Shown here: positions 2,878 to 55,814 of the stretch, piece after piece
Numbering within the stretch: position 1 is the stretch's first letter
Layout: every line of letters begins with the position of its first letter
NCBI GenBank assembly: GCA_001724265.1
Contig: MEDY01000025.1
Span: forward strand, 62,001-126,000
Length of the DNA stretch: 64,000 bases
Direction of reading: 5' to 3'
Source: Rhizaria sp. SCN 62-66
Lineage: Eukaryota
Position numbers and translations under genes: made by a program
The notes under the pieces: model-generated
Seen by the model: only the letters and a program-made list of their open reading frames with translations
Told to the model about the DNA's origin: nothing
The model's database searches: none

Positions 2878-2909
<32 letters not shown>

Positions 2910-4081: not shown

Positions 4082-4113
<32 letters not shown>

Positions 4114-10680: not shown

Positions 10681-10711
<31 letters not shown>

Positions 10712-11769: not shown

Positions 11770-11801
<32 letters not shown>

Positions 11802-13636: not shown

Positions 13637-16600
13637 TTACACCGCGTTGTCACCGACGTCGACCAGCCGCACCAGCCGCGGCGCCGCCAGCCTGGCCGTC
13701 ACGCCACTCCCACCGGCATTCACACCCGCACCCGCCGCTGCGTTTGCGCCCGCGCCTGCGTTCGTGGTGAGCGCGAGCGCGGTGGGGGTGACTGTGAGCG
13801 CGAAGCACGAGAGGTCGTACACCCCCGGAACGGGCACCAGCGCCGTGACGGTGAACGTAGCCTCCCCGCCCGGGGCCAGCCGCTTGACCGTCTTCTTGGT
13901 GGTGCCCGCCCAGACCAGCCCGGCGCCGAGCCCGAGGACGACGCTGCCGCGCACGGCCGTCATCGACACGGCCACCGGGGTAGCCACGGCGGCCGCGGCG
14001 GCGGTCCCGACCGCGGGCGCCACGAACGTCACGTCCAGGATACCGCCGCCACCGCTGCTATTATCGGTAGTACTGTTGCTGATGCTGCCGCGGCGGTGGC
14101 GCGAGTTGTTAGCCGCGGCAGCAGCAGCGGCGGCGGCGGCGGCGGTGGTGACCGGCGTGTGCGCGACGGTGACCGTGACAGTGACGCCGACGGCCGCGGG
14201 GCCCCGAGCGAAATTGTGCCGCAAACTCGGCGGGTGCGTGACCGTGACGTACACCGGCCACGCGCCCGCCGCCACGGGCGCCCCCGCCCCGGTACTATGA
14301 TGGCCGTGTGCCACGGACGGCACGGCCATGCCGCTGGCCACGCCGAACCCGGCGCTGTTGTTGAGGTTCACGGTGACGAAGTCGACGGCGGCCAGAGTCG
14401 CCTGCAGCAGCGGTGGCGTCGTAACAGCCATGGCGCCCTCCTCGGGACTGGCCTCGGCCACGACGGCTCCGGCGCCGGCGGCGGCCGCAGAGCCGATGCC
14501 GAGCCCGACGCTGACGCCGCCGCTCGCCGCCTCAGCGAGCGCGGAGGCAGTGTTGTTGCTGCTAACACTCCCGGACCGGCCGAGGCCAAGACTGGCGGTG
14601 CCAGAAGAGTAGCTGCTGCTGCTGCTGGGGGGTTGTGTGGGGAGCTGGGACACCCAGGACGGGGCGCCGGCGCCCTTAGCCGTGATCGAGGACGATACTA
14701 CGCAGGCGGGGGATTTGACCGTCGGGGCGTGGACGCTCGACAGCAGCACGCTCGCGTTGCGCCCGGTAGAGCTAGAGCCAGAGCCGGAGCCGGAGTAGCC
14801 AGAGCCAGTCCGCGCCACAGCATTACCAGCGCCCGCGCTCGCGTTCGTGGTGAGGGCGGGAGGAGCGAGGCAGTCAATGCAGAGCAGCCGGGTCACGCCC
14901 TCACCGCCGCCGCCGCCACCGCTCGCAGACCCGACGTTCGCAGTGCTACTGCTGTTCACCAGGGCGTTGGCGTTGCTGCTTGCGCTGGGGACGGGCGTGG
15001 CGAGATCCCACGTGACGGCCAGGTCGGCGTACTTGGCGTTGTTGATGTCGATGGTCTTGGTGGCCGGGTTGAGCACCTTATTGAGGTGTTCGTCCTCGCA
15101 CAGCACGCGCCGCTCAAGCCGCAGCAGCGCGGCCGTGCGGGCAGGCAGCAGCGCTCCGCGCGCGACACGCGTTTGTGCCGCCCCCGGCAACATCTGGCGC
15201 CCCGCTGCGGTGCGGGACCGGGGGCCGGCGCCGGCAGCGGACGCGGCGCTGGCTGCGGGCGCGTGGAGTGACGGCAGGAGCACGGACGAGGCGGCGAAGA
15301 GCTCGCTGGACTGCGTGGGGGCGTGCGAGGACGAGGACGCGACCGCCGCGGCCGCAGCGGCGGCGGCGGCCGCGGCGGCGGCGGCCGAGGCGTCGTAGGC
15401 GGCGTCGAAGCCGGGAGGCTGCGGCGACCCCAGGCTGGCTGCGGCGGCGGCGGCGGCGGCGGCAGCCGATGTCGAGGAGGGCAGCGACAAGAGAGAGCTG
15501 ATGGGCGTGCTGCCGCTGTCCCCGTTGCCCAGGGCAGAGCCGTCCTCACCGATACCGCTGTTGAAGGCGCCGCCGCCGTCTTTGGCCTCTTCGTTGTCCC
15601 TGTCGCCGTCGCTGTCGTCTTCATTTTCCTCGCCGTCTCCGTCCTCATCGTCGTCGTCGTCATAGTTGTCCAGCATCGTCGTCGCTGCCACCGCGGCCGC
15701 AATGGCCTCTGAGAGCTCCGCCTCGGCCCGATCGCCCTCGGTCACGGCCTCGGCCTTAGCCTTGACGGCCGCCGCCCGCGCAGCAGCAGCAGCGGCAGCG
15801 GCGGCGGCGTTCGCCTCAGCCTTGGCCGCGGCCGCCGCGGCCGCCCGCGCCACGGTACTTTCGTACGCCGCGAGCGCGCGCATGTGGCCGGGCGCGCCGT
15901 CGAGCCCGATGCGCGGGTGTGACATAGGGATGGGGTCGGCCGGCACGGTGGACACGGTGCCCAGCTGCGCGCCAGAGCCCTCGTCGTCGTCGTCCTCATC
16001 GCTATCATCCTCGTCGCCGCTGTTGTCGCCGTCGCCGCTGCGGTGGCCGTCGCTGTCGCTCTCGAAGATGGTCGTCGTTAGCGGCAGACGGCCGCCGCCG
16101 GCGAGGAGGCTCTTGGTCGGCGCCAGAGGTGAGTTGTCGTAGCCGTAGCCTAAGTGGCTCTGGTCGAGGTGCTTTCTCTCGCCGCGCCGCGACCGCTTGC
16201 TCCGGCCACTATTGCTGCCAGCGGCGGCGGCCGCGTCGTCGCCGTTGGATGCGGCTGCGGTGCTGATGTAGAGTGTGTCGAGGAGGGCGGTGGCGCAGAA
16301 GACAACGCAGCTGCCGCGGGAAGGCACGATGACACCCTCGCCGTCCACGACCCTCATTCCAGAGCCCACGGAGCCAGCGCCAGCGCCAGCGCCAGCGCCA
16401 GAGGGGCCGGAGCTGCCACCGGCGGGCACGAGAGCAGTGCTGAGGTCGGCGTTCGCGCCTTCGGGGTTGTTGCCGTCACCGCCACCGTTGGCAGCAGCAG
16501 TCATCATGGCAGCGAGTTCGCTCATGCTCAGCTTCCCCGACCCGGCGTTGGCGCTGCCGCCGCCAGAGCGCTTAGAGTGGCCGTGGCCGTGAGAGCCCTT

Positions 16601-19600
16601 CTTTTGCGGCTGCACCGGGGGACTCAACGCCGAAGCCGTGATGAGAGGGGCAAGGCCGTGCGTCTTGCTGACGAGCGTGGCCCTGCGCAACCGCAGAGAC
16701 GGCACCAAGACCGACGACAGAAGCGCCGTCACGTACGCCTGCGACGCGAAGCCCGCCGCGATCGCGGCCTCCAGGTACACCGGCCGCCGGTTGGCATTAG
16801 CGTTGGCAGCGTTCACAAGAGCACCGGCGTTGATGTTGTTGTTACTATTGCCGCCGCCGCCGAAGCCGAGGCTGTTGTTGGGGTTGTAAATGTTGGTGGC
16901 TGCAACGGCGGCCGCGGCCGCGGCGGCAGCAGCAGCGGCGGCAGCGGCCGCAGCCTCCGCCGCCGCAGCCTCTGCCGCCGCGGCGGGCAACACGGGCAGC
17001 CCCAGGGACAACGCGGCCGCGGCGGCCGAGGCCGTGACGGTGGCCGCGGCGGCGAGCGGTGTCGATAACCGCGGACGCTTGTCCGCGATATCGATCGCCA
17101 GCAGGTTGGACCCGGGGGCCAGTGAAGGCAGTGCGCGCACGCAGAGCTGCAGTGCGGGGACGACAAAGACAGGCTGGGCGCACCGCAGCAGGCGCGACAC
17201 GCTCTCGGGCACCGCCGTGTCGGCTGCGGCGAGCGGCGGCTTCGCTGAGTCTGCGAGCGACGGCTTCGAGGCGACAGTCGTGTTGTAGTTGATGAGGAAG
17301 GAGATTGTGTGCAGCCCTGGGATGAGGGCGCGGAAATGCACCGTCACGGGCAGCGACGCGCCCGGGGGGAGGCAGGTGCCAGGCGGCAGACACAGCGTGC
17401 CGTCAGACCAGCTGTACGGGAGCTGACGCTCTTGGTGGTCGCCGTCGGCCGCGGCCGCGGACTGTGTGCTGTCATCGCCGAGCCGTTTGGGCTTGCCACT
17501 ACTGCTGCTGCTGTTGTTGTTCTTGGCAGAGGCGAAGGCTGCCGCAAGGGAACTGGCACTGGCACTGTTGTAGTCGCCGGCGCCCTCATGGGTACTCGTG
17601 CCGTCACGAGTACTGGCGCTAATCGAATTCGTAGTGTTGCCGCTCATGTCTTCCTTGTCAGAGGCCGAGGTCAAGGCAGAGGACCAGTTGCTGAGCTTGT
17701 TGATGTTGGCCATGGTGACCGTGAGCACCGAGAACGCCGGGTGCGACGACAAGATCGTCACCTCGGTCACCGGCGTGGCCCCGGTGTTCTTCAGCACCCA
17801 CTGCACCGACGTCAGCTGCCCGTGGAGCGTCAGGAGAGGCAGGTAAGGCGCGAACTGCGACTGTGAGTACACGGCCGCCGCCGCAGCAGCCGCTGCCGCG
17901 CCCTGCTGCTGTCCGCCGGTGACCGCGCCAGGAGAGCTCGCTGTGGAGTTAGTGGCGGCGGCAGCAGAGGCGGCGGCGAGCGCGGCTCGGGCTAAGATGC
18001 TGGCCGTAGCGGCGGGAACGCGGAGCTGCATCTGCTCGCTGAGACTGCCGCCGAGACCGGCCACGGCCGCCGCCGCCGCCGCCGCTGCCACCACCTCAAC
18101 ACCCGCGCTCGCGTTGAGACTATTGATGTCGCTGCCAGTGGCCGTGTTGAGGATGCCGGCGTGGTCAGGCAGGGCGAGCACGAGCTTGCCGACCCGCGGC
18201 TTGACCTTGATCCTGAGCGCTTCGGCGGGCGGCACAGTGCTGCCGTGGGGCTGGGGCGAAGACAGCGGTAGCGCGCGGCTGCTGTCATCCCGCGCTACGG
18301 TCGCCGCGGTCAACAACGCGACGCCGCCGCGGCGCGGGGACAGCGACCAGGTGCTCACGGGCGCCAGCAGAGGGTACGGAAGCATCGACAGGGAGCGTGC
18401 ACCGGGCTGCGGGATCTGCACGTTCGCGGTGCTCGCAGCGGCGGAGTCTAAGGGGGTACTTAAACCGGGGATCGCGGGGGTGCTCGGGGTATTTAGTCCC
18501 GAGCCGGGGGTACTTAGACTCCCCACGCCAGCAGCAGCCACCCCTCCTTGCTGGCCGCCTAGACCGCCTTGACCGCCCTGTGAAGGGGTACTTACACTTA
18601 CACTGATGGGCGTAATGATGTGCACGCAGGAGCTGGCCGCGCCGCCCGCCTCGGTGGCCGCATGAGACAGCCCGATGAACGACGCGCCCTCGGTGGCCGC
18701 GGCGGGCGCGACGGTGCGCGTGGCGGGCAGGTTGAACCGGTGGTAGCTGTGCAGGTGGGTCTGGGCCGTCCACGCCACGCCCTGCAGCGCGAGGTCGCCC
18801 GCGAGGCGCGGCAGCGCAGTCAGCTCGACCACCGCGGTTGCGTGGGGCGGCAGCACGAAGCTTACGCCGGGGGTCGCCAAGGCGGAGAAGCCGGCGGCGT
18901 CCTCGTCGAACGCGGAGGCGTCATTGCAGTCGCCGCCGTCATCAGCTCTGTTGGCGCAGTTCTTGATGATGTCATATCTAACACTGCTGTACGTCTTCGT
19001 GGTGCTGCTGCCGTTGCCGCTGTTTTTGTGATTCGCGACGACGGTTAGAGCGCAGCGGAGGCGCATGTTGGTGACCGTGAGTGCCAGCGCCAGCGGGTTG
19101 GTCACCTCCACGGTCACGGTCACGGCCTCCCCGGCGCGGCCGCCGCGCGCGGCCTGACGCAGCCAGCGCTCGGTGGGCGCGTACAGCGCGTCGGCGGGAG
19201 TCGCCAACGCGGGTGCCACGGCGCGGGCCGCAGAGAGCTCGGTGGGCGAGTGGCCGAACGACGACGCGAAGGCTGAGAGGGAGACCGAAGTGGCGGGTGC
19301 GGGCAGAGCGGGCAGCAGGGGCATCGGCGGCTGGCGGGACACGGCGGCCGCCCACGCGGCTTGAGTTAAGGTCGCCGGGACCGTGTTCGGGTCCTCCAGG
19401 TGGACGGTGAGCGTGTGTGTGTTGAAAGTGGGCAGCGCCAGAGACGTGATCTCGCCGAGCAGCGCGCCAGTCTCGGGGTTGAGGGACTCTAAGGATAACG
19501 GGGCCGGCTTGGCAGAGCTCACGTCGACACTGATGCCGTCGACGTCAGCAGCGGCCACCGGGACAGTGTTGTTCGCGGTACTGTCAGTTGTGGTGACGGT

Positions 19601-22600
19601 CGTGAGAGAGAGGCCGTATTGAAGCTGCAATTGGTGTTGTTGCGACTCGGCGAGCAGTATGTCGTGCCACTTAGACGCTTCCGCGACGAACTGGTCTAAG
19701 TACATCGCCTGCAGATTAGGGGGCAGCTCGCCACCCTTACACAGCGACGACGACAAGTTAGAGCCAGAACCAGAACCAGAGCCAGAGCCGGAGGTACTTA
19801 CACTCGCGGCACCCTTGGACGCAGAGCCGCTAGCCCCAACACCCTTAGGCTTCCCAGAGGCAGTCACCGCGCCGCTGGTTCCAGCACTGCTACCGCTAGT
19901 ATTGCTCGTGGCAGTGCCAGTGTTCGCAGCGGCTGCAGTCGTCGTCAGGAACAGAGAGCGCGACAGCAGAAGCTCTTGCGCCTCAGCAGCGCTCAGCTTC
20001 CGGGTGGAGCCCCCGCCCGCCGCGCCCGCCGCGCCCGCGCCCCCCGCCGCCGACGACGCCACAACGCCGTTGAGGCTGTTGTTCACACCCCCCGGGATCG
20101 CCCCGAGCAGCGCGGCCGAAGCGGCGGTGTTGCGGCCGATGATCTCGGCAAAGAAGCGGACACTGAAGGCCTGCAGTTGCGGCGACAGGCCTCGAATCCC
20201 GCACTCGTTGGCCAACATCACGCGGAGGTGCGTCTCCAGACTGCCCCAGCCCTTGCCGTCCACCACGCTGAGCGCGGACGCGTAGCAGCGCACGGCGTGG
20301 GCGAGGCGGCCTAACTTGCGGTACAGATGCGCCGCCATGGTGAGGTGGAAGGCGTACTTGCGCACCAACGGAGTCGGCAGCAACAGGTACGTGTACGACA
20401 GGTGTTCGAGCAGCAGCGCGCCGCGAATGCTGTTGGCCTCGCCGTCCGAGGCGCGGACCAGCACGGCGGCGACATCACGGATGCGCGAGCCGACGAGCAG
20501 CATGCGGCTGGGGTGCTGCGGCCACTGCTGCTGCTGCAGCTGCTGCAGCTGACCCAGCAGCGAGTAGCTCGACTGGATGCCCGTGATTGTATTCGTAGCG
20601 CTGGGACTCAGCATGCTGCTGGCGCCTTTCGCGGTCAGGCTCTTGTTGTAGATGGTGTTCCCGGTTGTCAGTGAGGTGTTGTAGTTGTACCCGCCGTTGC
20701 CGCCGAGGGTGCTCATGCTCATGTGCACCGGGTTCTGGGGCAGCACCGAGGGGAACCGATAGGCGTCCGCGAGCCATAGCAGCGCGCGAGTGGCCCGCCG
20801 CGAGTCGCCCAGCTTCGTGTACGCCGTCACGGCCGCCTCGATAGCGCTGGTTGCCTCCCGCATGGCCTTGCCGTACGCCTCGGTCTCCGCGGCGACGGCG
20901 ACAACGCCGCAGCCGTTGCTGCCAATGCCGCCGCTGCCGCCGCCGCCGGGGACTGTCAGCGTATTGCTCTTACTGCTGCTGCTGCTCGAGCCGGCGCCGT
21001 TGGGGGCCAGCAGTACAGGCGGCGGCGCAAAGAGCGGCACGGTGTTGTTCGTAGCGGGCGTCACGGTGGCCGCGAGCATGATGGCCAGACCCAGGTATTC
21101 GCTGGCGGCGGCGGCGTGGACCGGGGCCGACGCGTTGCGGAAGTCGGTCGTGGCGGCGCGAAGGTGCTCCACTGCGAGGTCAGTCCTCCCCAGCGAGAAA
21201 GCCAGGGAGGCGAGTGCGATGGTGGTGGCCTCAGGCGCGGTGCGGGGGAAGGCGAACGTGGACACGCCGGTCAACGACAGACGGGTCGTGTCCGCCGCGG
21301 TGGCCGCAGCCGCACTGCTGCTACTGGAGCCGCCGCTGCCGGAGCCAGAGCCGCCGGCGTCGGCCGCGGAGGTGGTGGCGGTGGTTTTGCGACCGCCGAA
21401 GATGGACTTGAGCGTGTTGCGAATGCCTTTGCGCTCCGAAGTCACCTTCTCCTTGAGGAAGTTAAGCCGCTTGTGGGCCGCGGGCATAATAACGCGCTGC
21501 ACGAGCTGCTTGGCGAAGGTGCTGAGGTCGTAGAGGTCATCTTCAGACAGCAAAGCACCGAAACCGAGGTACTGAGAGCTGATGTTGCTGTTGTTCGGGC
21601 CGTTGTAGTCATCTGCAGCTGTTGCGGCAGGGTCGCTTCGAGTACTTGAAGCGGAGTTTTGCGCGGTCGACGGGGAGGAGCGGTACGCGGTGGTCGGCGG
21701 CAGAAACACCGTCGACGTGACCGACGGCCGGCCGGTCAGAGACAGCCTCCCAGCCGCCGCCGCCGCCGCTCCGGAGGAGGCGGTGGACGCGACGGAGTTG
21801 CTGCGGCTGCCGAACTGACTCCCCGCGGCGGCGTCGGCCTCGGCGGCAAGGATTCTCGCGCGGGCGCAGTCCGAGGCGGCGGCGACCTCGGCCGCGGTCT
21901 GGGGCGGAACCTGCGCCGTGAGGGCCTGCGCCCAGAGCAGGCGCGCCACCGCGGGGCACCGCGCCCCCGGAGCAGAGGCCGGGTAGAGGGAACGCGAGCG
22001 GGCCAGCAGGCGCGCCCAGCGGCGGTGCGCCTCGGCGCGGAGGGCCTGGGACGGCGGGGAGATTTGGCCCGGGAGCAGCGTTTCAGAGAGCATGCCTGGG
22101 GTTTCAAGAGAAACAAAGGAGAGGAGAGAGGACATACATCGGGGTGAGATTAGTGCAGAGTGACAGAAACGTGTCATATTCTAGTAGAAATTAGCATGTT
22201 AGTTTTACATATCAAGTGTTAATGCAAAATGACGATGATTATGAAGCGTATATCTCGTCCCAACTTCTCTTCAAGTCGCCAGACTGAAGGCCGAACAAGT
22301 CGAGAGGAGAGTAGAGTCGAGTATAGTAGAGTGTCCAGACAAGACAGCTGGATTAGACCGGTGGGACACGTACCTGGGGTGAGCGTGGCGGCGGTGAGCC
22401 TGCGCCAGTAGACGAGCGCGGCGGAGGGCTGCGCGGGTGCCAGTGAGAGCGCGAGCGCGGCAGCCGACGTCTGGTCGAACATCAGGATGTCCGACGGGGA
22501 CGGAGCCGGGGCCTGCGATGACTGTGAGCGAGAGTTGGCACTCGCAGATACGGTCGCAGTCGAGCTCGAGCTGCTGTTGGCGGCGGTGTTAGAGCTAGAC

Positions 22601-24127
22601 GACGAGGGCTGCGCGAAGGGCGCTAGCAGAGTGATGCTTGCACTGCCACTGCCACTGCTACTACTAGAACTAGAACTAGAACTATTGCTGCTGCTGCTGT
22701 TACTAGAAAAAGAAGATGAGGAAGAGCTGACTTGCGGCAGCGTGATTTGATGCGGCGGCAACCACAGCGGGCCGCCGACGTTCGAGTTCGTGCTCGAGTT
22801 GACTGGATACGCGCCAAATACGGCCGTGATGTCGGTGTTATTAACGATGTTGGCGTTTGACCCGGTGCCAGGGCCGGGGGCGTTGCTACCCGCGCCATTG
22901 GCCAGCGGGGACTTGGCGCCGCCGCCCTGACCGTCAGCGAGCGATCGCGAGCCGGCCCCCGGCGACCCCGGCGGTGACCGCAGCCCTCCCTTGCGCAGTG
23001 TGACAGAAGAACACATGGTGTTGATGGCGATACTGCTCACCGTTGCGTCTTCGCGGGATAGCGAATGCACCTTGCGCAGCTCGTTTACTGCCCGCACGGC
23101 CCCGGCGGCGCGCGCGACCTCGAACTCGCGCAGACGGGGTTCATCGCGCGAAGCGGCGGCAGAGGCCGCGGCGCGGGCAGCGGGGTCGCGGAAGGCCTAG
23201 AAAAAAACAAGGATTGCGGGGGGATATAGCAAAAGTTGTTGGAAGATTATTTTGTTGAATATATCATGAGAAAATATAGATATTCGCGTGAATTTAAATG
23301 TTTAATATGCAGTAGTGCGCATCTGAGCGAGATACATGGCTGGAAAGTTACAGGGAGATACGGGGGGTGGGACGGGACGTACGAGTGGCGAGGTGACATC
23401 GTGGTCAGTGACGACGACGTAGGCCCTCGGGATGGTGGCGTCTGCAACGCCCCTCTGCAGTAGCGACGGCAGCCGGTGCATGGAGTGCAGCGCCTCGGCC
23501 GACCGGTCCGCGGAGTCCTCAGTGGCGGCCACGGCGACGATGACGGCGACGGGGAAGTCCGGCAGCTCGCAGTCGCTGGAGCGCAGGGTCTCAAGGAACT
23601 CGGCGCGGTAGCGCGTCCACCACGGGCAAGGGTCGCGCACGCGGCTCAGGAAGCCCGCCAGGTCGCCCGGGGACCGCAGCGCGTCGCGCGCAAGGGACGC
23701 GGGCGCCATGGGGGCGTAAGGCGGCTGCTGGAGCATCTGCGGCAGCGGCAGCGCGGCCTCGAGGTACGCGTTGGCGTTGTCGATGTGGGGGCTCTCGAGC
23801 TCGGCCGCGGAGACCAAGTTGAACGAGGTGACGCCGCGGATGCCGTTGGCGTCCCAGGGAATGTCGGAGAAGAAGGGCTTAAGCAGCTCGGTGAAGGTGA
23901 GGCCGTTCTTGACGCAGGACTCCTCCACGGCGGCCGAAGCCAGCACCAGGATTGTCGGCCGGTACCGGTCGCGGACCCACTCCGCCACGGTACGGTTCTG
24001 GAATAGCAAAATATAAACACAAAACAACAGAACAATAATAGGTTAGTACATGGCATACGGTTCGAACAAGTTGGTTTAGTTGGGGACATGGTTCGGCGGG
24101 CTGGCGAGGAGCAGAGAGACGTACCAT
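13637..24127 (-). CDS. TRAPPC8: TRAPP III complex subunit TRAPPC8/Trs85 (~3300 aa); exons 24127..24125, 23997..23383, 23196..22374, 22095..13637
   Basis: The N-terminus M|NRTVAEWVRDRYRPTILVLAS...NGLTFTELLKPF and the blocks LSEDDLYDLSTFAKQLVQRVIMP, PEATTIALASLAFSLG...AAAASEYLG and RKYAFHLTMAAHLYRKLG...RCY...KGW match TRAPPC8. Three GTACGT...AG introns (23998..24124, 23197..23382, 22096..22373) keep the frame. Stop is TAA. Confidence 0.88.
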
Positions 24128-27181: not shown

Positions 27182-30100
27182 ATGTCCTGCTCTCAGCCGC
27201 AGCAGCAGCAGCCGACAAGCAGCAGCAGCCCTCCTGTTAACTCAACTGCAGCAACTGCCGCAGCGTCCGCTTTAGGGGCGATGACAACGAGGAGCTACGC
27301 CCATGACGACAGCGACGACGAGTTCGATGATGACGATCGCGATAACGATCACCCGCCGACCGACGACGACGAGTGCGGCGACGACTACGACGACGATGAC
27401 AACGATGAGAGCGAGACAGACGGCGATTGCGACAGAGCCTACCGCACCGCTAGAGCTGCGGCTGGCTACAACGCGAGAACGAGCAACGGCCCAGTTTCGC
27501 CGCGCACAAGGTCCAACAACTCAACCAACTCGAGCAGCTACCAGCACCACACACACCAGCAACAACAACAGCAACAGCAGTAGTCTCAGGCCCAGTCTCA
27601 GTCCCAAGCTGTCTCTACTTACACTGCGTCTACTCACGACGGTGTTTCCGTCCCAACCGACCTCTCAGGCACTTACATCGGAGGCACTGATAACGCCGCG
27701 GGCGCCTACACGCACACTCAAGCTTCAAGCGGCTTGTTGCCGTATCAACAGCAACCGCTGCAGCGCAGCTCGTCCCCTGCTCACAGTCACTTGAGTGCGC
27801 ACAGTCAGCTGAGCTCGGTCTCACAGCAGTCTCTGGACGAGAGCGGCACGCATCCGCATCCGCAGTCTCAGTCTCAGTCTCAGTTTCAGTCTCAGTCACG
27901 GGTGCAGCCGCATGTGTTGCCACAGGCTGGTCACGGGTACAGTAACAACAACATCAACAACAACAACAACGGCGGCGGCAGCTCTCAGTTCGCTCTCAAC
28001 ACCCAGCATCAGCCTCAGCTTCAGCAGCAGCCACAACAGCATCCGTCCCAGCCGCAGCCGCCGGGTCTAAGTACCCCCGCTCTAAGTACCTCTGCCAAGG
28101 CGCCCGCCCGCGCCCCGCGCCGCGTGACCGAGGACCTGCTCGAGCGGCGCCTGTTGCAGCACGACTTTGTGTACGTCAAGTGCGACGGAGACTGCCCCGC
28201 CGACGGCATTGCCCCCTCGGCTGCGAGCGCACACAGTACCGCGAGCACCAACTATACCCCCAACTATACCAGCAACACTGGTTACGCGCGCGTAGGCAGT
28301 GCCGGCGCTAATCATGCGACGACCGCGAGCGCGGCGCGTGTGAGCGGCACGGGCGGCGCTGCTGGATCTATTTCTGACATTGTGGCGACTCAGGCGACCG
28401 TGAGTGCGTTTCACGCTGATGTGGACCGCAAAAACAACAGTTTTTCTCCGAGTTTGAGTGAGGCGTCCACTGTCACCGTGTCGGTGCCGCCGCCCGCAGG
28501 CGTTCACAACAATATCAACAACAACAACAATCTCAACAATACCAGCAATACGAACACGTGCTACAACAACTTTGCTGCCAGCGCCGGTGCCAGTGTCGGG
28601 GCGAGTGCGAGTACCGTTTACTCTTGGAATCCTCCGGTAGGTTCCAATCACGCCCACAGTCGAAGTGCCGTCTCGCGGGCTGTAAGTACCCCCGGGGTAA
28701 GTACCCCCGGGGTAAGTACCGCTGCTAGCCCCCGCAGCAACGTCACGAGTCTCAGCACCGCCCACTCGGCCGCGCTAAGTACCCCCTTAGACAGTGCAAG
28801 TACGCAGACGCAGCTGTCCCCGAGTACGCCCCCCCACGTGTTCCCCTCGTCGCCCCAGCCACAACAGCCGCGGTCACCAGAGAACGACTTCGCCAACTAC
28901 AGTACTAACAACAACCATAACGGCCATAACAACAACCACAACGGGGATAACGCTGATGCGGGCAACGCTGTCACCGCCACCAGCAGCAGCGCCAACAGCA
29001 CCACGACTGCGAGTAGTTTGGGCAGTGCCGCTGCGAGTCCGAGGGCTGTTAAGGCTTCGAGCGCGTTGTCGATGCACACGCCTGAGCGTGTTTCGACTGT
29101 GCCGATGCTGCCAACGCCAGAGACCGGAACTGAGGCTGAGACTGACGCGGAGTCCCTGACGGGGGGGCTGAGGACTGTTGGAGTGAACGACATTGCTCTC
29201 GCCGTCTCCCCGCAGCAGCAACAGCAGCAGCAACAACAACAACAACAACAACAACAACTACAACTGCAGCAGCAGCAGCAGGTATCGAGAAGCAGTGCGT
29301 GTGGCTGCATTGCCACTCAGCCCGACGGTGTAAGTACCCCGGCCGCGAGTCCAAGTACCCACTCAGACTCCACGGTTGCGAACCGCAGCAACGTTCTCGC
29401 TAACAGCGCTAGCAGCCCGAGTGCCGGTGTCACTACCATGAGCACTGGTGTTGGCTATGTGAATGAGCTCGGTAACATCAGTGAGGCAGACTCACCTCCG
29501 TTTGCCTCCATGTCACAGCTGCCGCAGTCTCAGTCTCAGTCTCGGCCGGCTACAGCATCGTCTTCGAGCTCTAACCCGACTGCGACTGGGATTGGGGCTG
29601 GGGCTGGGATCGGTGCTACAGCGATGTCCGCCGCCGCCGCCGCCGTGGCCGCCGCCGCTGGCTCTTCCGCCACAACCACGGGCACTCCGGGCGCGGGCTC
29701 CAGCAAGCTGCGCTTCGCGTGCCGCCCCTCGGCAGTGCTCGTGGTCAAGAAGCACAATAACAGTCACGTGTCCTCGGACATGGCGCTGCTATGCGACTTC
29801 CTGATCCACACCTGCGGCCTGACGGTGTTTGCCGAGCCCCTCGTGGTGGCCAATGAGCCCGCGCTGCGGCACCTGACCCCCTTAGACCCCGCGCACCCGG
29901 GTAAGGGGGTCGACTTCGCCATCACGCTCGGCGGTGACGGCACGGTGCTGCATTACAACTCGCTGTTCAAGGCTGGACGGCCGGTCCCGCCAGTTGTGTC
30001 GTTCGCGCTCGGCTCGCTCGGCTTTCTGACGCCGTTTCCGTTCTCCAAGCACAGGGAGGTGATCGCAACCATCTTGCGCTCGTATTGTAGCAACAATAAC

Positions 30101-31087
30101 ACTGTGAGCGGGAGTGTCACACCCTTGAGCAGCAGTCCGCCCGCAGCCGCAGCCGCTGGGAGCAGCTTGCAACAACAGTCGCAGTTTGAGGATAGTGGCA
30201 ATATCAGCGGCAATATTAGCAGCAGCAGCAGTAGCAGCAGCAGCAGTAGCAATGGCAACGGTGTCAGCGCCACTACGAGTCTGAATACCAATAGCATTAG
30301 TGCTCATGGTAACGCCGGTGTGACCGTGAACACCAGCAACAGCAACTCTCTCGGTACTGTGATCTCCAGTCCAAGCGAGAACGCTTCCGTGTACGTCAGT
30401 GCCCGTGTCAGGCTGCTGTGCCGCGTCGTCAAAGCGCCTCGCAACAATAACAACAATAATAACATCAATATTAGTCACACGAACGCGAGGACCGGCGCGA
30501 GCTCCTCTGTCGTTGATGACACCAACAGTAGTAGCACTCTTAGCAGTACCAGTACTCTCGTGGGCGGCTTAACTTCTCCCGCGACTGTGGTGAGCACCCA
30601 CCAGCCGCTGAACGAAGTGGTGATCCAGCGCAACCTCGTCCCCTCGATGGCGCTGCTGGAGCTGTTCGTCGACGGGCACTTCGTGACGACTGTGCGCGCG
30701 GACGGACTGATCGTGGCTACGCCGACCGGCTCGACGGGCTATAGTATGAGTGCGGGGGGGCCTATGCTCGCCCCGTCGACGCCCTCGATCGTGATTACGC
30801 CGCTTTGCCCGCACAACCTGTCGTTCCGTCCCGTCGTCGTGTGCGACGCGACGCTCATCCGCGTGCGAGTGCCGCCGACGCTGCCGGCCGACTCGCCGCC
30901 GCTGACTGCGTCCTTCGACGGCCGCAGCGCCGTGGAGCTGTACCCCGGTGACAGCGTGCAGATCTCGGTGTCGCATTTGCACGTTCCCAGCATCGTCTTC
31001 ACCGAGTTCAACTGCGAGTGGTTTAAGAGCATCAAGCATAAGCTGCACTGGAACAAGTCCTTTTTGGACCGGCCACCGAGGAAATAA
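27182..31087 (+). CDS. NADK: ATP-NAD kinase with long low-complexity N-terminal extension (~1300 aa if TAG 27581-27583 is read as sense)
   Basis: NAD kinase motifs are VDFAITLGGDGTVL, SFALGSLGFLTPF, PLNEVVI, ADGLIVATPTGSTGYSMSAGGPM, ITPLCPHNLSFRP, SFDGR and WFKSIKHKLHWN. ORFs 27152..27583 and 27734..31087 share one frame separated only by a TAG. Stop is TAA. The start at 27182 is inferred. Confidence 0.9.
28682..28720 (+). repeat. 15-bp tandem repeat GTAAGTACCCCCGGG x2.6 inside NADK (encodes VSTPG repeats)
   Basis: Read directly from the sequence. Confidence 0.9.
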
Positions 31088-32030: not shown

Positions 32031-35000
32031 TCATTTTGGTTCTCGGTGTGAAGTGTCAGTAATATGAACAATGCGTACTGACATCATTCCGCCTTTGTAG
32101 ACTTCTAAGGCCTCTTGATAATCGTCATCGTCGGCAAATGGCACCGGGGTGATATCCATAATATACAACAGCTTGTTTTCCGTCGTTTGAGAAAAAACGT
32201 AAACGCAGCAATCGACGGAATCAAAAGATTTGTGGCTGTCACTGTTCCCACGTTTGCGGATTTTGGTGCTGTTGACATCACGCTTGCGCTTGCTTTCGGT
32301 TTGCTTCCGCAATGCAGATTCGACTGTCTTTGTCAGCTTCTTAACCGTCCGATGCATTGCGCCCATGCGAAGAGCACACTTGCCAGATCGCGCAAGTCGA
32401 ATCAGTCCGACAAGCGGATTGCCGGCGACTCCCGTTGGAAATTGAAGCAATGCTGACTGAAAGTGAGGTTGCGTCGAGAATTTGACGTCAAAGCGCCACG
32501 CAAAGTTTGCATACGAACAAGTGCTGTGAGCAGAAGAATCTGATTTCTGTGTGGCAAGCGTGATTTCATCACGGATTTCGACAGCTTTCCTGGCGATCTT
32601 TTTGATGAATGCCTTCGAATCTAGCTCGCCATCAATAACTGTCACGCGTCGGTTCAATGAGCAATCCTGATTGCGGTAGATATGCGTCATGTCTACGTCG
32701 CCCTAACTGTATAGGGTGCCACTTTCGGTGACCAGATCATACGGTTTATGATGCTTGCGAAAAAGGAGTGGGAGCTCATCTTGACCCTCCACATCCTTGC
32801 CACCACGAACCAGAGAGTACATAGAGCGCAGCATGCCAGTAGTTCCGTGGTATGCAACTTGGTCAAGAAGCCAGTACGGGGCCTCTGGACTTGCCCACTC
32901 TAGATCGCAGTTGAGATGGCGTTGATAAGCTGGGCTGTCATCCATAGAGTTAGTGGCACGAACACACACATCATGTTTGCAGTTGCTTAGCCACACTTGT
33001 GGCGACCAAGCGATAGGGGGCTCGCTACTTGAGGGCTCGATTGTCCAGATGGCATGTGACAGCTTAAACGCACTTGTACTGACAGTTTTATTGTCGTACA
33101 AGACATGAATTATATTATTAACACTGCTAACAGAGCTTAGCTTGCTCAATGCTAGCGCGTCAATCGCGGTGATTGCATCCTTTAGGCGAGTACGAACGGT
33201 CGCTTCACTCTGATCCCCACATGCAGCTTCCAAGGCAAACTTGAAATCACCTTTTGCATGTTCGACAGCATCGTCCACTTTTGGCGAATAGAACGTCTTA
33301 GTGAGTTCAAAGGCTTCCTCGATCTCCTCTGTTTTCCAGGCATATGACCATAAAGGAACGAAATTTGCAACAGCACTGTCGGTTGCTGACTTGCAGATGT
33401 TACTGTAACGCTCCAAATAAGGAGGCGTTGATATCACAGTTGTTGCTGCAGCCGTCGCGCCATGTACAGGCAGGCCGTTGTCGCAGCTAGAGTCAAAGAG
33501 ATACAGCGTGTTTTCGTGAGCCAACTTGAGCTTGACTTCGTCGCGATCAAGCGCTTCAACACTATCAGGCAAGAAGGAATCGGAGTCATCGGTCGACGCA
33601 GCGTAGTGATGGATATCATTATTCGGAAAGTGGCAGATCACGTTCATGTTGAGCTTGAAGCGCGCAATGTACCACAACAAGTTCAGCATCGCAGACTTGC
33701 CCGTGCCAGGCGGGCCGCGCACAATGAACGTGGTTCCAGGAACAGAGCGGTCAACCTTGCGCGTGCTCAAGTGAGTCACGAGACCTTTGTAAAGACCGTT
33801 ATGCGACTTACGCAGCAGCAACCTCTCGATAAAGGCGTCGTTGGGACCTGTGCCGCTAAAGGGAAAGAAAGCACCCTTAGGTGCGTCAAGCGTGTGGAAA
33901 AAAGTTGAGGTCGAGTCAAACGTCATTAGAGCATGAGCCTTGCTAAAAATCTCAGCGTAAGCTCGAGCAACACTTAGCTGAGTAGCGGCCGCTAGCCGCT
34001 GCTTGTATGCTTTTAGCCTGGCCTTGGCCTGTGCCTGTGCAGCCTTAGCTGCGACAAGTTCGCTGTGTGCTTTTAGCCGGTTTGAGGCGTCGGTCGCCTT
34101 ATTGAGCGTCGCATGTGCATTGTTGACAGAACTCGTTTTTTCCACGAAGCTGTGCTTTACTGCGCTGAGAAGGCGAGCTAGCCTGGCGATACTTTTTGCG
34201 GTCAAGGGTGCCCGTGCGCCTAGCAGTGCCAGTACACATGAGTACACGTGGAAAAAATCGAGAAGTACAAATGCAAAAGTATGAATATGTGAGATATTGA
34301 TAATGTTCGATAAACATGCCAATGATATAGATGGCAACAATATGTTGATTCATTATCTCCTTCAAAGTTAATCGTGAACAATTAATTGGCGACGTACGCC
34401 TAAGATCCGGCAACATTGCTTCCAGCTATTTTTCAGCATCTTCCCGTGCACAGTTTGCTTGCCAAATCTAGAGTACAGCGTTAGAAAGAGGGCCATTTGT
34501 TTCATCCGAGACATTGCTGCGCTAGAAAGAATAGCTCATCATAATGTACCCTTGAAGGGTAGATTCAAGATACTCAAGCTATTCGGAAAGGGATTCCATA
34601 CTAGGGTTTTCCAGCAACTTACCTTCTTCAATCTACTCTATCTCTCGTCGAACCCTGTTGCACTCTTGTTTGCATTTTTTTATCTCAGCAGCTAGCCACT
34701 ATTCTTCAAACTCCTATTGTGCGTGCTCCATCAGGGTATCGCGCCTCGGCCCCGCAGCTTCATGCTCGTCGATTTTCGCTTTGTAGATTCGTTCCTTTGC
34801 GTGCTCGAGGTCACGCTCAGCTGCGAGCCCCTTCTACAAAGCAGATCTCAGAGTGTTAGGCTCGAATTCAGGGTACTCCCCTTCGTCGATGGTTGAAAGC
34901 ATGGCTTCATCTGCAATTGTAGAAGGACGATATTAAGAAATACATTTAATATATTATTATATTGCGTCGAAGCGGGGATTTTAGGGCACAATGAGTGGAT

Positions 35001-35882
35001 AGTACTAGTATTACAAAAGAGAAAAACATATATCGAATTTGCGTCTACGTATTCGGAAACAAGTGATTCAGTTATGTTGCAAGAGTGACGTACCTTCAGT
35101 ACTGCTAAGAGAGCGGTGAGTGCTTGCGGTAGCAGAGACGTTGAGTCGAAGGGGCAAAGACGAAAATGTACGAGTGAAAAAAGACGCTGCACCTCCAGTT
35201 AGGGCCATCGATGATGCGTGACTGTTCTTGTTCTAGTTGGTATTAATAGGGATGTTGAGGCGCGGAGTGCGGGATGCTGCCCTTGCACTTGTGACAGCAA
35301 TGTCCTCGGCGTTGTCGTTGTCGCAGAATGGTGCCTTCTACAGATGCCAGAATATCGAAGGGGAGAGAGCCGAGTGAAATACAGTGTGTTTGTGAGACCA
35401 AGAATAGCAAGAGAGCAAGAGGACAAGCAAAGTACGCTGATATGAAAATTGGGCATACAAGTCGGAGTACAGCTTCAAACAAGACAACGCATTTTGTAGC
35501 AAGAGGCGACGGTAAATCACATACGCAGTTACTTGCACGGTTGACAGAGGCGTCTAACTTATGACTGATGTTGGTTTGCACTGCATCTGTGTCCTTGCGG
35601 ACACGCGCCAGGGCTACTGCTGCAATGGCGAAAGACGGTGTAGAAGAGCAAAGAAGGTAACCTATTGGGAACAAAGCATATGTGATCTTCCGAGTCGTGA
35701 GACTTTCGTTTGAAAACAGTGCCATTCGCCTCCTGGGGAGAGCTCGAAGTACGAGTTAAGGAGGCCAAGAGTGGCAAGCCCCAGTGTTCCCAATGAATTT
35801 ATCGGGCGAAGATGATAATTGAGGATGAACACGTACCCACTTTGTTTGTCAGTAAAAATCCCTTGGCAGTTCTACCGAGCAT
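32031..35882 (-). CDS. Crinkler/RHS-type (CR) protein: N-terminal coiled coil, P-loop NTPase and possible degenerate REase-like C-terminus; proposed exons 35882..35837, 35619..35525, 35337..35094, 34910..34398, 34219..32031 (1028 aa, 10 in-frame TAG)
   Basis: Walker A FIVRGPPGTGKSAMLNLLW, Walker-B-like TLYLFDS, TVISTPP..ERY..ICK and VPLWS...EEI follow the CR-NTPase pattern. Four GT-AG introns (35620..35836, 35338..35524, 34911..35093, 34220..34397) have matching phases and give a 3087-nt spliced frame with no internal TAA or TGA. The first two exons and the 3' end are less certain; another GTACGC donor is possible near 32078. Confidence 0.65.
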
Positions 35883-36868
35883 CTTAGCTAGAGTTCTTTC
35901 CGCAAACAAGGGAGTGCAAGAGAACCTGGATTAAGTGATCAACTTCAGCGCTTCGGACTTCAGGCCCGGTCTGGGTGGCTGTCAGATTGAGGTCAGAAAT
36001 ACGTCAATAGAAAAATTGAGTCGAATAAAATAAACACAAATCGTAGAGTTGTAATTTTTGTGAGCATTGGACGTCGGGTCCCATGGAAAAATACAGAAAG
36101 ACAAACGCAAAGAAATGACACTTGCTGCATGCGATGACACCAGAGCATCGTTAGATATCTGCGAATGCCTCGTTCTAGCTAGAGACAAGGGTTCATAAAA
36201 TGTCTCTAGTACCATTAAGGACAAACCAAGGTGGCATATGCATGGCAATTTCCAGAGCTTTATCAGAGAACATGTATGGGTCTTACAAGGGCCTCAATAT
36301 TCTCACGCGTTGGCGGAGTGCACTGCTGGGTTTTTCGGAACTTGGTCATAATGGATCTGGCACATCCAATCGCGTGGACATCGTCACTCTTGCGATAGGT
36401 AGTGATTATTTTAGTATCAACGATGCATGATTGATTTTCAATCTAAGCTTACATGGATATATACACATGTAATATGAAGTTGTCTGTTATGCGCAGCTGA
36501 CGTATGAGAACCTGTTACGTATACTAAGTAAGCTTACTGTACTAGTATTGATAAAAAAATTGCGTATTCTCGTCACGAGTACATCTCCAAAGATCTTGAG
36601 TTCTGCTACATTTGCGTGGACTTGCTTTCTGTCCTTAGGTATACAGTGTACATAGAGTGTAATATGTCAATGGTTCATGAATAGCTATCTGTCCAAGGAG
36701 TCAGTAAGAAATCTTTGGACTTGCCCAAGCAAGATTACGTTTTGGGGGACTCGAATTACTAGTGTATCGTGAATACGTATCTTAATGCATGTACATCATT
36801 GAACATTTTTAACTTGTCTGAATATTGTTGTTTGCGCACCCTGTTGCGCAATCTCTTAGCACTTGCGC

Positions 36869-38310
36869 TTATTCCTTCAGCTGTTGCTGTTGTTTTTGTT
36901 GTTGTTGTTGCAGCTGCTGCTGCTGCTGCTGCATCAGCGCACGCCACAGCCTGCGTTCCTTGCGCGCCTCGCGCCTGCGGTTAGCAGCTCGTCTCAGCCC
37001 GTCTTCGTGGAACTCCCGGCTCGAGGGCCAGTTCTTGATCTCGCTCATCATCATCTCACCTACGACCCGGCCCTTGCCGCCTCCCCTACCGCCACCGCCG
37101 CCGCCGTCGCGGGTGACAGCGTCGCACGATGACGTAGCGTCGCCATGGTGGTGCCTGTGCTTGTGGTGGTGACGAAGCTTGCTACTGCCGCCCATGCCGC
37201 CGCTGGCGCCGCCGCCGCTGCTGCCGCTGCTGCCGCTGATGGTGGCGGAGATCGTAGCCCGAAGCGCGCGCACCGACTGCGACTGCACGATGGCCTGCGC
37301 CAGAGCCTGGGGCAGTCCCAGTCCTAGTCCCAGTGCCGGCGGCGGCGGCAGCGGCGTCAGCGGCGGCGGAGGCGTTGCGCTTGACGCCACTAAGGGCGAT
37401 AACGACACCGCAGCTGACGACAATGCAGAGCTGGCAGTGTTGCTGTCGTCGGCAGTCGAGTCAGCGTCAGTGGGCGTGGGGGCCGTTGCAGCGGCAAAGC
37501 CGTCAAACACAGTGTCAGTGCCGTCGCCATACGTGTCCCGTCGCTCATTGTCACTGCCTTCTTCACTGTCATCGCCGGTCTCGCCGATTTTAGTCGCATT
37601 GTTCGGAGTTGCGCCAAGTGCACCCGTGTTGCTGTCGTCATCGCTGGAACCACCACTTGCACTGCTGCTCCGACCAGTGCCATCCGAATCAGAGAGAGAG
37701 GATGACACATCGCCTGTAGCAACAGCTGTTCCACCAGTCGCAACATTCTTTCGGCCGCGCTTGTTTGCCATGACACCAGAGGCGGATACAGACGAGGTCG
37801 CAGCCGCTGCCGCTGCAGTCGCGGCGGCGGCGGCGGCGGAGGTAGCAACAGCGGCCTTGGCTACTGCAGCCGCTGCCGCTGCTGCCGCTGCTGCCGCCGC
37901 GGCGGCCTCTGCGCGCCACCATGGGTCGCCGCCCCATTCCCACCCCCACCAGCCACCTCCGCCGCCGCCGCCGCCGCTGCTGCCGCCGCCGTCATTGTCG
38001 TCATCGTCGTCGATGTCGGGGCCGAGGCCGGGTACGCGTGGGGGCCACCTGCGCTGCTGCTGCTGCTGTGCGTTGCGGGTATTGACTGAGCCTGCACGGC
38101 CCTTGCCAGTCGCCCCCGCGGCGTTAGCATGGCCACTGCGAGTGTTCTTGCTCTTGCTGTTGTTGCGTTGGTTGTTGTTAGCGGGACCGAGACTGGCGTT
38201 GTTATTCGCGGCGCCACCGTAGCTGGAGCTGTAATACCCACGCTCGGCCGCTGCAAGGCATAGTAACGCGTACTCGCGGCCAAGGGCGAGACACATGCGG
38301 TAGTGCCTTC

Positions 38311-38342
<32 letters not shown>

Positions 38343-41300
38343 GCATCACAGTCGTTGCCATTGCTAGTCAAGTGACTCTGTTGCTGATCAGCAGGGCTAG
38401 TCGCAGCGGCAGCAGAGGGGTCAATGGCCCTTGCGGCGGCTACCATCACACGGACAGGCTCTATGGGCCACTCTGCACAAGCGGGGCTTACACTCGCCGC
38501 AGCCTTGCTGCCGTTGTTGCTGGCATCCGTCGCAGCGACTACGAGAGCAAGTGCTGCGCACCGACGCATTGCAGAAGTCGCCTGGGACAAAGACGACACC
38601 ACCACCGCAGTCGCCTCGGCGTCGGCCTCAGCCTTCGCCTTAGCGGCAGCGGCAGCGGCGGCACGTTTTGCCTCGGCGTCGGCCAGCGCGGCGGCCTTCG
38701 CTACCTCCGCCTCTGCCTCTGCCTCTGCCTCAGCGTCGCCGTTGCCGTTGCCGTAGGCGTCAGGGGAGCTACGACCAGGAGAGTTGCCGCCGCCGTCCAT
38801 TACCAGTGGTTTGTTGGCGCCAACAGCCGCCGCTCTGGGGGTAGGAGCCTGGCTTGGAGCCTGGCTGTGAACTCGGCTGTGGTAGTTCCCCGCTTTCGTC
38901 GCCGTTTTACTGGCGTTGCGCGCGCCGCCACTGCCCCTGCCGCTGCCGCCGCCGGCCAGCGCGTCGACGGCTGCAGCCACGGCTTCGTGGCCGCCTTGGC
39001 GTCCGCTCAACCCCGCGCCCACGGCCACCAGCAGCGCGTGCAGCGCGGAGGCGGCTTGAGTTAAATCGGCCAGGGAGTACACGGGGCGGGACAACAGCTC
39101 AATGAGGTCGGCATCCGGGTTATACAGCGCAGGGCTACTTCCATTGCACGAGCTACTTACATTCGCGGCGCTGGGACTCGCGGCGGTGTCACGACCAATT
39201 GTACTTGAGCTGTCGTTGTTACCAGCAGAAGAATCAGCCTCAACACACACGTTTGCCGCTTCAGCGACGCTAGCGCCCGTGACCATCGCGAGATTGGCCA
39301 CGAAATTTTCACTGGCGACGGGTCCCAGCCCTAGGGGGCGCGCCGCGCCCAGCGCCAGCGCCAGCGCCAAAGTGCGCGCCCTTTCAGCACCGTTCACACT
39401 GGCACTCGGCTCCCTCGTACTGTTCCTGCTCGTCGCGTTGTCGCTGCTGTTGCTGTTATTGTTATTGTTGTTGTCGTTGCTAGCATTGGCAAGGTCGTTG
39501 GCGTTCGCGGCGAGCGTCAACACATGTGACAGCGCCTCCGTCTGCAGCCGCGCCCACCACCTGGGTCCGCCCCCGCCGGCACTCGACGCGCCGACACCCG
39601 AGCCGCCGCCGCCACCGCCGGTGGAACTGCTGGTATTTGCACCTGAAGCACCACCGGCGACGGTAGCGCTAATGAACGGCCGCAGGAGCTGCTGTCGGAC
39701 CGAAAGCGTCCACCCGGGGCGCGCCGTGTTGCTGCTGCTGCCGCCTGTGGAGGAATATACGGACACAGATGCCGACGCAGAAGGCGACTGTGCCGGCGGC
39801 GGCGAGGGCGACAGTGTGCTCAGACTAAGACCAGGACGAGTGGCGTCTAAGTGGGTACTTACACGCAGCGCACTGCCGTCGCCGTCAGCCAGCTTGCTCC
39901 GCCCATCGGCTTCAGCGGCCGCCCGCTCAGCCGCTGCGACCGCGGCCGCCCTCGCCGCCGCTGCTGCCGCGGCCGCTGCCGCGGCCGCGGCCGCCGCGCG
40001 CGCGTAGGTGGCGGCGGCCCGGGCTCGCGCGAGGCGGCGGTGCCAGGTGATGGCGACCCGCGATCGCATACGGCCCGCGGCGGCCGAAACGCGGGCCAAG
40101 AGGCGGACGACGGGAGTGCTGTCGCGGCGGGCGAGCAGGGCGAGGACGTGCGCCCACCGTAGTAGCGGCGGACGCTGCGCAATCGTAGACTGCGCAGTTG
40201 ACGTATGTGACTGTGCGATGGAGCCCTGCTGAAGAGAAGACTGCTGCGCCGAGAGACTGTGCGCAGCTGCTGCCGAATGAGAGTGACCGTGGTCGTGGGG
40301 AGGAAAAGCGGGGTTCGAGGGGACTGGGACTGTCGCAACGGTGGCAGCGGAAGCGGTGAAGACTGGGTGAGAGTCGTACTGGTACACGACGCCTGCCCGG
40401 CGCCGGTGGGCTGTCAGACGCGCCGCGCGGGCGGCGATGGAGCCCGGCGCGGCGGCGTCGGTGCTGTAGAGCGCCACCAGAGAGCTAGTTGCACTGGCTG
40501 CGCTGGCAGAAGTCGTGAGGGCAGGAGACTGGGTGGCGACGACGGCTGATGAGAGAAATGCCGCGGGTTGAGTGTCAAGGGTGACGGCTGATGAGAGCGA
40601 GGTCGATGGAGGAGGGAGCAAGCCTGGCAGTGACGACGATGCTGAGAGGGGTGAGGCATGTGCTACAAACTGAGAAGAGGCTGACAGAGACGCGGAGTCA
40701 GTGGGGGATGCAAGTGGCGCGTGCACAACAATAGGAGTGGGACCAACGTTGCGTGACTCGCCCTCTGTCTCAGCCGCGGAGGCTGCGGCGGCTGCCTGCG
40801 CCAAGACGGCGCGCGTGTGGCGTTTGTGGCAGTAGAGGCAGTCCAAGGCGTGGTTGCGATGGTAGCCGAACAGCTCATCGCCATTGTCGCCACCGATGGC
40901 GCTACTGAGACCGGCACTGCCGCTGACGCCATTGACAGCCGCGTTGGTGTGATTAAAAGCGTTAGAGATTACGGTGATGTCAGCGACACCGAAGGCGGAT
41001 AAGGGGCCATCGGGGTGACTGAGAGCTGGGTGACTGTGGGCAGCCATCGCGGCGCTGTGGCAGCGGCAGGTGCAGTGCGCAGACTGACTCACTTGTTGTT
41101 GTTGTGCGAGGAGGGAGACTGTAGTGAGATCAACTGCAGAGTAAGGGAAACCACCAGTGCCACTTTGTCCACAAACAGGGCTCACTGAAACGGAGTTACG
41201 GCCAACGCCGTTCGTGTTGGTCGCGGAGCAGGTGATCTTGCTCGTCGTGTCAACCATAGCAATGCTCTTGCAATTGCTTGACTCCGGGAAGTTTGACTCT

Positions 41301-52697: not shown

Positions 52698-52728
<31 letters not shown>

Positions 52729-55700: not shown

Positions 55701-55814
55701 CTGCCGTGGGCGGTGTACGCGTGGAGTGAGGAAAAGGGGCGCAAGAGGGCCGCTGTGACCGGCGCGGCGTGGGTGCAAGCGGCCCTGTTCGTTGACGTCA
55801 ACACGCTTTCATAA
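48205..55814 (+). CDS. Giant (~2495 aa) low-complexity protein of unknown function; exons 48205..48441 and 48564..55814
   Basis: A phase-0 intron 48442..48563 (GTACGT...TAG) joins ...FHSTSA to SHPLHLEVFLPP in the frame of the 2413-aa ORF. Stop is TAA. There is a short predicted coiled coil (DEMRALMAELDLDIKLAKEARERLKLK); no domain recognised. Confidence 0.72.

Follow-up and report, generated by a model that had tools for sequence, protein, structure and literature searches.

UAG as a probable sense codon in a GC-rich, intron-bearing eukaryotic genome

The NAD kinase gene (NADK) in a stretch of DNA assigned to Rhizaria sp. SCN 62-66 (contig MEDY01000025.1, positions 62,001 to 126,000) carries a TAG in its reading frame, at the end of a run of glutamine codons. 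The whole stretch of 64,000 nucleotides (nt) is called the window below, and positions are counted from its first letter. Together with the in-frame TAGs of a neighbouring P-loop gene and of a UBA-domain gene, and with the codons found at gene ends, this TAG makes it probable that UAG is a sense codon in this genome, presumably for glutamine, and that UAA and UGA terminate translation. The window is eukaryotic and GC-rich (47-73% GC per 2 kb), with very long open reading frames (ORFs) that are rich in low-complexity sequence and with short, AT-rich introns.

The in-frame TAG of the NAD kinase gene

NADK is a single exon at positions 27182-31087 of the + strand. It has 1301 codons when the TAG is counted as one of them and ends with a TAA at 31085-31087. 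Its ATG at 27182 has an A at position -3 and follows a CT-rich leader. The TAG is codon 134 of the frame (27581-27583); it directly follows eight glutamine codons (CAG CAA CAA CAA CAG CAA CAG CAG; 27557-27580), which are themselves preceded by CAC, and is followed by TCT CAG GCC CAG TCT CAG. A preliminary description of the window had given the letters of the glutamine run and the TAG correctly but had placed the start of the run one base early, at 27556 instead of at the CAG that begins at 27557. It had also stated that the frame continues for about 3.5 kb into the kinase domain, which agrees with the 3504 nt that are open between the TAG and the TAA and with the presence of both Pfam domains of NAD kinases in the read-through protein.

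The identity of the gene product is clear from these domains. NAD_kinase (PF01513) matches amino acids (aa) 906-966 (E 3.7e-12, 47.1 bits against a cut-off of 25.5), and NAD_kinase_C (PF20143) matches aa 1143-1269 (E 2.2e-32, 111.9 bits against a cut-off of 23.7). The catalytic region, as delimited by the Pfam matches and by alignment with the best database match (P0001), spans aa 839-1295 (29696-31066, + strand) and is interspersed with low-complexity inserts; the translation contains ITLGGDGTVLH, the region of the GGDG motif, which places the protein in the NAD kinase family. A protein search scored 7999 candidates and returned 270 proteins at E <= 0.001, headed by P0001 (49% identity) and P0002 (52%) and followed in rank by fungal proteins, mostly of Basidiomycota and chytrids, with 33-48% identity. 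Over the two halves of the kinase, identity with P0001 is 49-53%.

The coding signal does not change at the TAG. By log-odds of codon usage, with the remaining large genes of the window as the training set, the 133 codons upstream of the TAG have +0.39 bits per codon in frame versus -0.28 and -1.22 off frame, and the 133 codons after it have +0.43 in frame. The 133-codon N-terminal segment (27182-27580, + strand), which had been called well formed on the basis of its letters alone, is also similar to the N-terminus of P0001: residues 4-86 align co-linearly with residues 3-79 of P0001, including an acidic DDEF patch, and the local alignment score of 64 compares with 38.6 +/- 6.1 for shuffled sequences and is reached by 1 of 500 shuffles. 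The same test with P0002 gives a weaker result, the score being reached by 12 of 500 shuffles.

A second conserved element lies downstream of the TAG and upstream of any ATG. This N-terminal motif (aa 302-361, including RRVTEDLLERRLLQHDFVYVKC; 28085-28264, + strand) matches aa 198-265 of P0001 with 37.7 bits (E 3e-6). As had been noted from the sequence, the next in-frame ATG is far away: there is none between the TAG and codon 631 (29072-29074, + strand), which is 1489 nt downstream of the TAG, so that the motif can be translated only by passage through the TAG or from a non-ATG start. Conserved coding sequence thus stands on both sides of the NADK TAG, as it does around the one TAG of the P-loop gene that falls into an alignable column.

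The TAG belongs to the coding region of NADK and not to an intron. Introns exist in this genome, and near-cognate start codons occur past the TAG (for example ATC at 27677 and ACG at 27710), so an explanation by which the TAG falls outside the mature frame, either within an intron or upstream of a non-ATG start or of the start of an internal transcript, can be formulated; it is nevertheless very improbable. There is no donor of a local type (GTACGT, GTAAGT or GTACGC) from 27182 to 27583, in accordance with the preliminary description, which had found neither an AT-rich intron nor a GTACG donor nearby; on the + strand, GTACGT occurs nearest at positions 25305 and 28171, and the second of these sites is within the conserved motif. 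Both flanks of the TAG are GC-rich and score as coding, whereas local introns are AT-rich and 120-260 nt long. The GT...AG pairs that could be built from the G-TAG junction would span only 10, 16 or 22 nt and would shift the frame, and the sequence that precedes the TAG is similar to the N-terminal part of P0001. An intron over the TAG is therefore rejected, for lack of a local donor and because both flanks are coding.

The main rival to a sense UAG is the standard code, with the NADK TAG as a nonsense allele (C-to-T in a CAG) or an error of base-calling or assembly, a P-loop gene that is a defunct member of a repeat-prone family, and a UBA-domain gene that starts downstream of its TAG. We regard it as unlikely overall. 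At NADK a single transition from CAG to TAG suffices, the site lies within a run of CAG and CAA, and the kinase domain begins only at about aa 839, past the ATG codons 631, 642 and 753, so that a shorter enzyme is conceivable. For this site alone, a nonsense allele or a base error in the CAG run is possible, and the finding would then be an ordinary one. On the other hand, loss of the N-terminus would remove the motif that is conserved with P0001.

A less probable variant, and an improbable one in our judgement, keeps the standard code and makes UAG leaky, with a near-cognate tRNA-Gln that reads it with an efficiency of a few per cent where the context is rich in glutamine, which would yield some full-length NADK from a gene that bears a nonsense codon. 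The precedent is yeast, where, according to excerpts of PMC13192750, premature stops in glutamine-rich proteins (snf5-Q225X and others) leak under the standard code to give full-length protein at 2-8%, with glutamine inserted, and where glutamine codons on both sides of the stop are favoured. NADK resembles these cases in that its TAG stands at the edge of a glutamine run, after eight glutamine codons, and in a glutamine-rich, low-complexity N-terminal region; in the UBA-domain gene the TAG is followed by CAG CAG. It differs in that the 3' codon is TCT (serine), with T instead of C as the +4 base, so that the glutamine-stop-glutamine flank described in those excerpts is absent. Moreover, the glutamine content of the NADK protein (6.6%) is below the range of 7-20% that they give for the yeast proteins.

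TAGs in two further genes and the codons at gene ends

The P-loop gene lies about 1 kb downstream of NADK on the opposite strand (35208-32031, - strand), in an island of low GC content (about 41-52% per 500 nt, compared with at least about 60% in the genes on either side) around which only short or weak terminal repeats were found. It consists of three exons that are joined in phase by two GTACGT introns and comprises 939 codons, nine of which are TAG. Exon 1 (35094-35208) starts with the ATG at 35208 and ends at the GTACGT donor at 35093. Exon 2 (34398-34910), which is supported by its coding score and by its phase with both adjoining exons, contains eight in-frame TAGs (34836-34834, 34716-34714, 34701-34699, 34635-34633, 34581-34579, 34524-34522, 34470-34468 and 34428-34426) and no in-frame TAA, TGA or CAG. 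Exon 3 (32031-34219) encodes a Walker A motif (GPPGTGKS), contains the ninth TAG (32705-32703) and ends with a TGA (32033-32031).

The distribution of the three stop codons over the three frames of the spliced gene is strongly asymmetric. TAG occurs nine times in each frame (9/9/9), whereas TAA is found 0, 11 and 18 times and TGA 0, 19 and 41 times, the coding frame being the first. TAA and TGA, of which the other two frames hold 44.5 on average, are therefore fully excluded from the coding frame, and TAG is not excluded at all. Exon 2 scores as coding in frame (+0.29 versus -0.18 and -0.53 off frame), and the introns have no coding score.

These counts bear directly on the idea that the P-loop gene is dead. 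A pseudogene that had accumulated nine nonsense codons should also contain TAA, TGA and frameshifts, but none is present in 939 codons, and neither the splice sites nor the phases are disturbed. If nonsense changes were random, all nine of them would be TAG with a probability of 1e-4 to 6e-4, depending on the transition bias. The same nine TAGs stand against leaky termination, because readthrough of a few per cent per site would leave no protein after nine successive events, unlike in the yeast proteins.

Hypermutation as a source of the TAGs, either RIP-like (repeat-induced point mutation) or another C-to-T change directed at CpA, was considered and rejected, since the gene lacks the corresponding dinucleotide signature: in the region 34001-35000, the ratio (CpA+TpG)/(ApC+GpT) is 1.46-1.47 and TpA/ApT is 0.78-0.83. 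Exon 2 retains 13 CTG trinucleotides versus 3 CAG, and its 4 in-frame CAA codons are untouched, a pattern that does not fit a strand-symmetric process.

The databases also speak against the rival that keeps the standard code. An ORF of 514 aa (P0121), from a contig no longer than 4502 bp, is identical to that of the window and ends at the same TAG (32703), which suggests that a separate and more fragmented assembly carries it as well. P0121 and a second database ORF (P0126) are pieces of the P-loop gene as delimited under the standard code. In total, 12 homologues were found at E <= 0.001, and homologues retain the Walker A motif (GPPGTGKS). Three homologues (P0127, P0130 and P0132) continue through the column of the exon-3 TAG, and the other 9 of the 12 end earlier.

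The family to which the gene belongs is less clear. There is no Pfam match to the P-loop protein; a feature search with a language model gives a score of 0.95 to eukaryotic clusters and to one cluster that was automatically named Crinkler and in which 13% of the members have the RHSP Pfam domain, and a score of 0.90 to an RHS cluster. By these language-model features only, the gene looks Crinkler/RHS-like. A search with exon 2 on its own found no homologue (none of 68 candidates at E <= 0.01). Its alignment with the homologues is that of a coiled coil and is not a trustworthy guide to the amino acid at the TAGs, which, in a reading of the translation, fall on polar positions of the predicted coiled coil.

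The third gene with an in-frame TAG encodes a UBA domain (Pfam, E 2.4e-6) and runs off the end of the window (63207-64000, - strand). Its TAG (63920-63918) stands in the frame GCT AAA TAG CAG CAG AAG, and its stop codon is a TGA (63209-63207). Under the standard code the gene could begin at the ATG at 63830, which opens an ORF of 207 aa, but the score of the 26 codons that precede the TAG is +0.78 in frame versus -0.07 and -2.47 off frame. With this gene, an explanation by nonsense mutations and errors requires three separate coincidences within 64 kb.

None of the 12 gene ends that could be placed in the window uses TAG. Seven genes end with TAA (13023; 13637, - strand; 31087; 36869, - strand; 55814; 60855; and about 62340) and five with TGA (832; 24943, - strand; 32031, - strand; about 59871; and 63207, - strand). 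Eight of the 12 genes are backed by Pfam (TBC, Trs85, NADK, UBA, L20, HAD, RhoGAP and a QCR9-like match that is below its cut-off), and the seven TAA codons stand at sensible C-termini, including those of NADK and of the mitochondrial L20. The absence of TAG from gene ends counts against the standard code, and a leaky UAG would leave it unexplained. As a separate observation, all six very large genes end with TAA although their coding sequence is GC-rich.

Frequency and meaning of UAG, and comparison with known codes

Several observations weigh against a sense UAG, among them its frequency. Six pieces of GC-rich genes with a total of 13,857 codons contain 1 TAG versus 396 CAG, whereas for TTG and CTG, a corresponding pair that differs in the first base, the ratio TTG:CTG in the same codons is 130:405, which makes TAG about 100-fold rarer than a freely used synonym. 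The single in-frame TAG compares with 62 and 134 in the other two frames, so that the exclusion of the codon from these genes is nearly that of a real stop, as the standard code would have it. Only the P-loop gene uses TAG as often as a synonymous codon would be used (TAG:CAG 9:8, TTG:CTG 19:16, as for a neutral choice), and even there the codon is unevenly distributed: TAG:CAG is 8:0 in exons 1 and 2 versus 1:8 in exon 3 (Fisher's test, p about 4e-4, calculated by hand). In TTG:CTG the two parts resemble each other (4:4 and 15:12). The N-terminal module of the P-loop gene may have a different history.

Further points on this side concern the setting of the P-loop gene, the gene ends, the machinery of decoding and the homologues. 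Families of the Crinkler/RHS-like type are prone to form pseudogenes, and a 92-nt stretch at 36645-36735 that is 67% identical to 32814-32905 (E 0.015) and contains an in-frame TGA may be the degenerate relic of a second copy, which would mean that members of the family decay in this genome. In this small sample, the absence of TAG among 12 gene ends has a probability of about 0.07 (calculated by hand) if TAG normally ended 20% of the genes. Within the 64-kb window there is no tRNA gene (ARAGORN), no Rfam family and no eRF1 gene. Only the TAG of exon 3 of the P-loop gene falls into an alignable column, where the three homologues that extend through it have K, P and R, so that homologues fix no amino acid.

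Glutamine is nevertheless the best guess for the meaning of UAG, on the basis of codon context. Both TAGs in the GC-rich genes NADK and UBA are flanked by at least two glutamine codons, which is the case for 1.9% of 14,093 codon positions in general versus 29.6% of 533 glutamine codons. The conclusion of the preliminary description that the context points to glutamine is borne out as far as the TAG is internal and flanked by glutamine codons; it is weakened by the extreme rarity of TAG in GC-rich genes and by the K, P and R of the homologues. Ten alternative translations and control ORFs were looked up as exact matches, which was uninformative, because none of them was present in the collection, including two controls free of TAG.

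If UAG is a sense codon in this genome, it would not be an efficient terminator and would be decoded, with glutamine as the most probable amino acid. The NADK TAG would then be the ninth glutamine of the poly-glutamine run, produced when a CAG underwent a synonymous C-to-T change, and NADK would be made in its full length of 1301 residues. Decoding would call for a tRNA with a CUA anticodon, which by analogy with other lineages may be a derivative of tRNA-Gln, and for an eRF1 with poor recognition of UAG. Because TAG is nearly missing from GC-rich housekeeping genes, its decoding may be costly or inefficient, or the change may be recent. Most genes would avoid UAG, and a fast-evolving gene of low GC content would tolerate it.

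A more specific scenario can be put forward tentatively, with a little less than even confidence. In this scenario a GC-rich, intron-bearing eukaryote outside the ciliates, with an NADK closest to protist sequences and next to fungal ones, has made UAG alone a sense codon, for glutamine, and has kept UAA and UGA as stops. The genome would have been caught at an uneven stage, at which UAG is gone as a terminator and almost purged from housekeeping genes but has reached the frequency of a neutral synonym in a fast-evolving, Crinkler/RHS-like gene.

The nearest known kind of code is the reassignment of UAG alone, and Iotanema spirale is one case in which UAG has become glutamine. In such codes, as in the window, UAG is sense in glutamine-like contexts, and genes are ended by UAA and UGA (7 and 5 of the 12 gene ends here). 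Excerpts of PMC5304391 and PMC11687900 name Iotanema, a rhizarian (with UAG read as leucine) and phyllopharyngean ciliates; 'the rhizarian exLh and Iotanema' are paired in PMC5304391, and two phyllopharyngean lineages in which UAG alone means glutamine are given in PMC11687900. The window differs from these cases. It is not ciliate-like, given its GC content of 47-73% per 2 kb and its spliceosomal introns, which mostly start with GTACGT, and TAG is very rare in most of its genes (1 versus 396 CAG) and common in one gene of low GC content. It also shows neither a cognate tRNA nor an eRF1. A literature search found no report of a UAG-only code in a GC-rich organism other than a ciliate.

Codes in which both UAA and UAG (UAR) have become glutamine comprise, according to the same two excerpts, ciliates with NCBI table 6, ulvophycean algae, Hexamita, Streblomastix and the aphelid Amoeboaphelidium protococcarum (PMC5304391, PMC11687900). 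They share with the window the change of a stop codon to glutamine, and the aphelid stands on the fungal side, as do the best named matches of the NADK protein. However, UAA terminates here, and because it ends seven genes, a UAR-reassigned lineage is ruled out for the window.

A third kind of comparison is with codes that use stop codons as sense codons. This is reported for Amoebophrya sp. ex Karlodinium veneficum, and such use in Amoebophrya, Blastocrithidia and Condylostoma is rare or gene-dependent. For Blastocrithidia and Condylostoma, stop codons with two meanings that depend on the context are described in an excerpt of PMC5304391. The difference is that two or three stops are reassigned in these organisms, whereas UAG alone is affected here.

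The reading of UAG as sense has consequences for the evolution of codes and for annotation. Nuclear genomes very rarely change what UAG alone means; the excerpts of PMC5304391 and PMC11687900 report it for one fornicate, one rhizarian and some ciliates. If the reading is correct, the window would represent another independent case, outside the ciliates, in which only UAG was reassigned, and a snapshot of a freed stop codon that is re-entering genes. It would also add a case in which the capture of stop codons can be tested, since the codon seems to be absent as a terminator and barely used as a sense codon. Annotation under the standard code would truncate or split genes, P0121 and P0126 being such pieces of one gene, and a standard model of NADK would miss the conserved N-terminal region.

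Introns and giant proteins of the window

Thirteen introns were read in the window, and their 5' splice sites are strikingly uniform. Eleven start with GTACGT, on the - strand at 24124, 23382, 22373, 35093, 34397 and 25646 and on the + strand at 5030, 48442, 57607, 58123 and 61686; one starts with GTAAGT (59377) and one with GTACGC (near 25358). The donors fit the pattern GTAMGY and the acceptors YAG; the branch sites are CTAAC-like, and the AT-rich bodies measure about 120-260 nt. Some of the TAGs that bound long ORFs are intron acceptors, for example those at 48561 and 58306. A literature search on the GTACGT donor as a marker of lineage yielded nothing useful.

Two genes show how these introns shape the ORFs. 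In the Trs85 (TRAPP) gene on the - strand, the first coding exon seems to consist of the ATG alone (24125-24127), with a GTACGT intron directly after it and with exon 2 continuing in phase from 23997. The RabGAP-TBC gene (1904-13023, + strand) is assembled from the ORFs 1904-5134 and 5089-13023, which are joined by the intron 5030-5196, and the TAA at 5134 is intronic.

The window also encodes giant proteins of 2400-3600 residues (36869-47749, - strand; 48205-55814, + strand; and 13637-24127, - strand) that are rich in tracts of poly-Q, poly-N, poly-S and poly-A; for two of the three there is no Pfam match at all.

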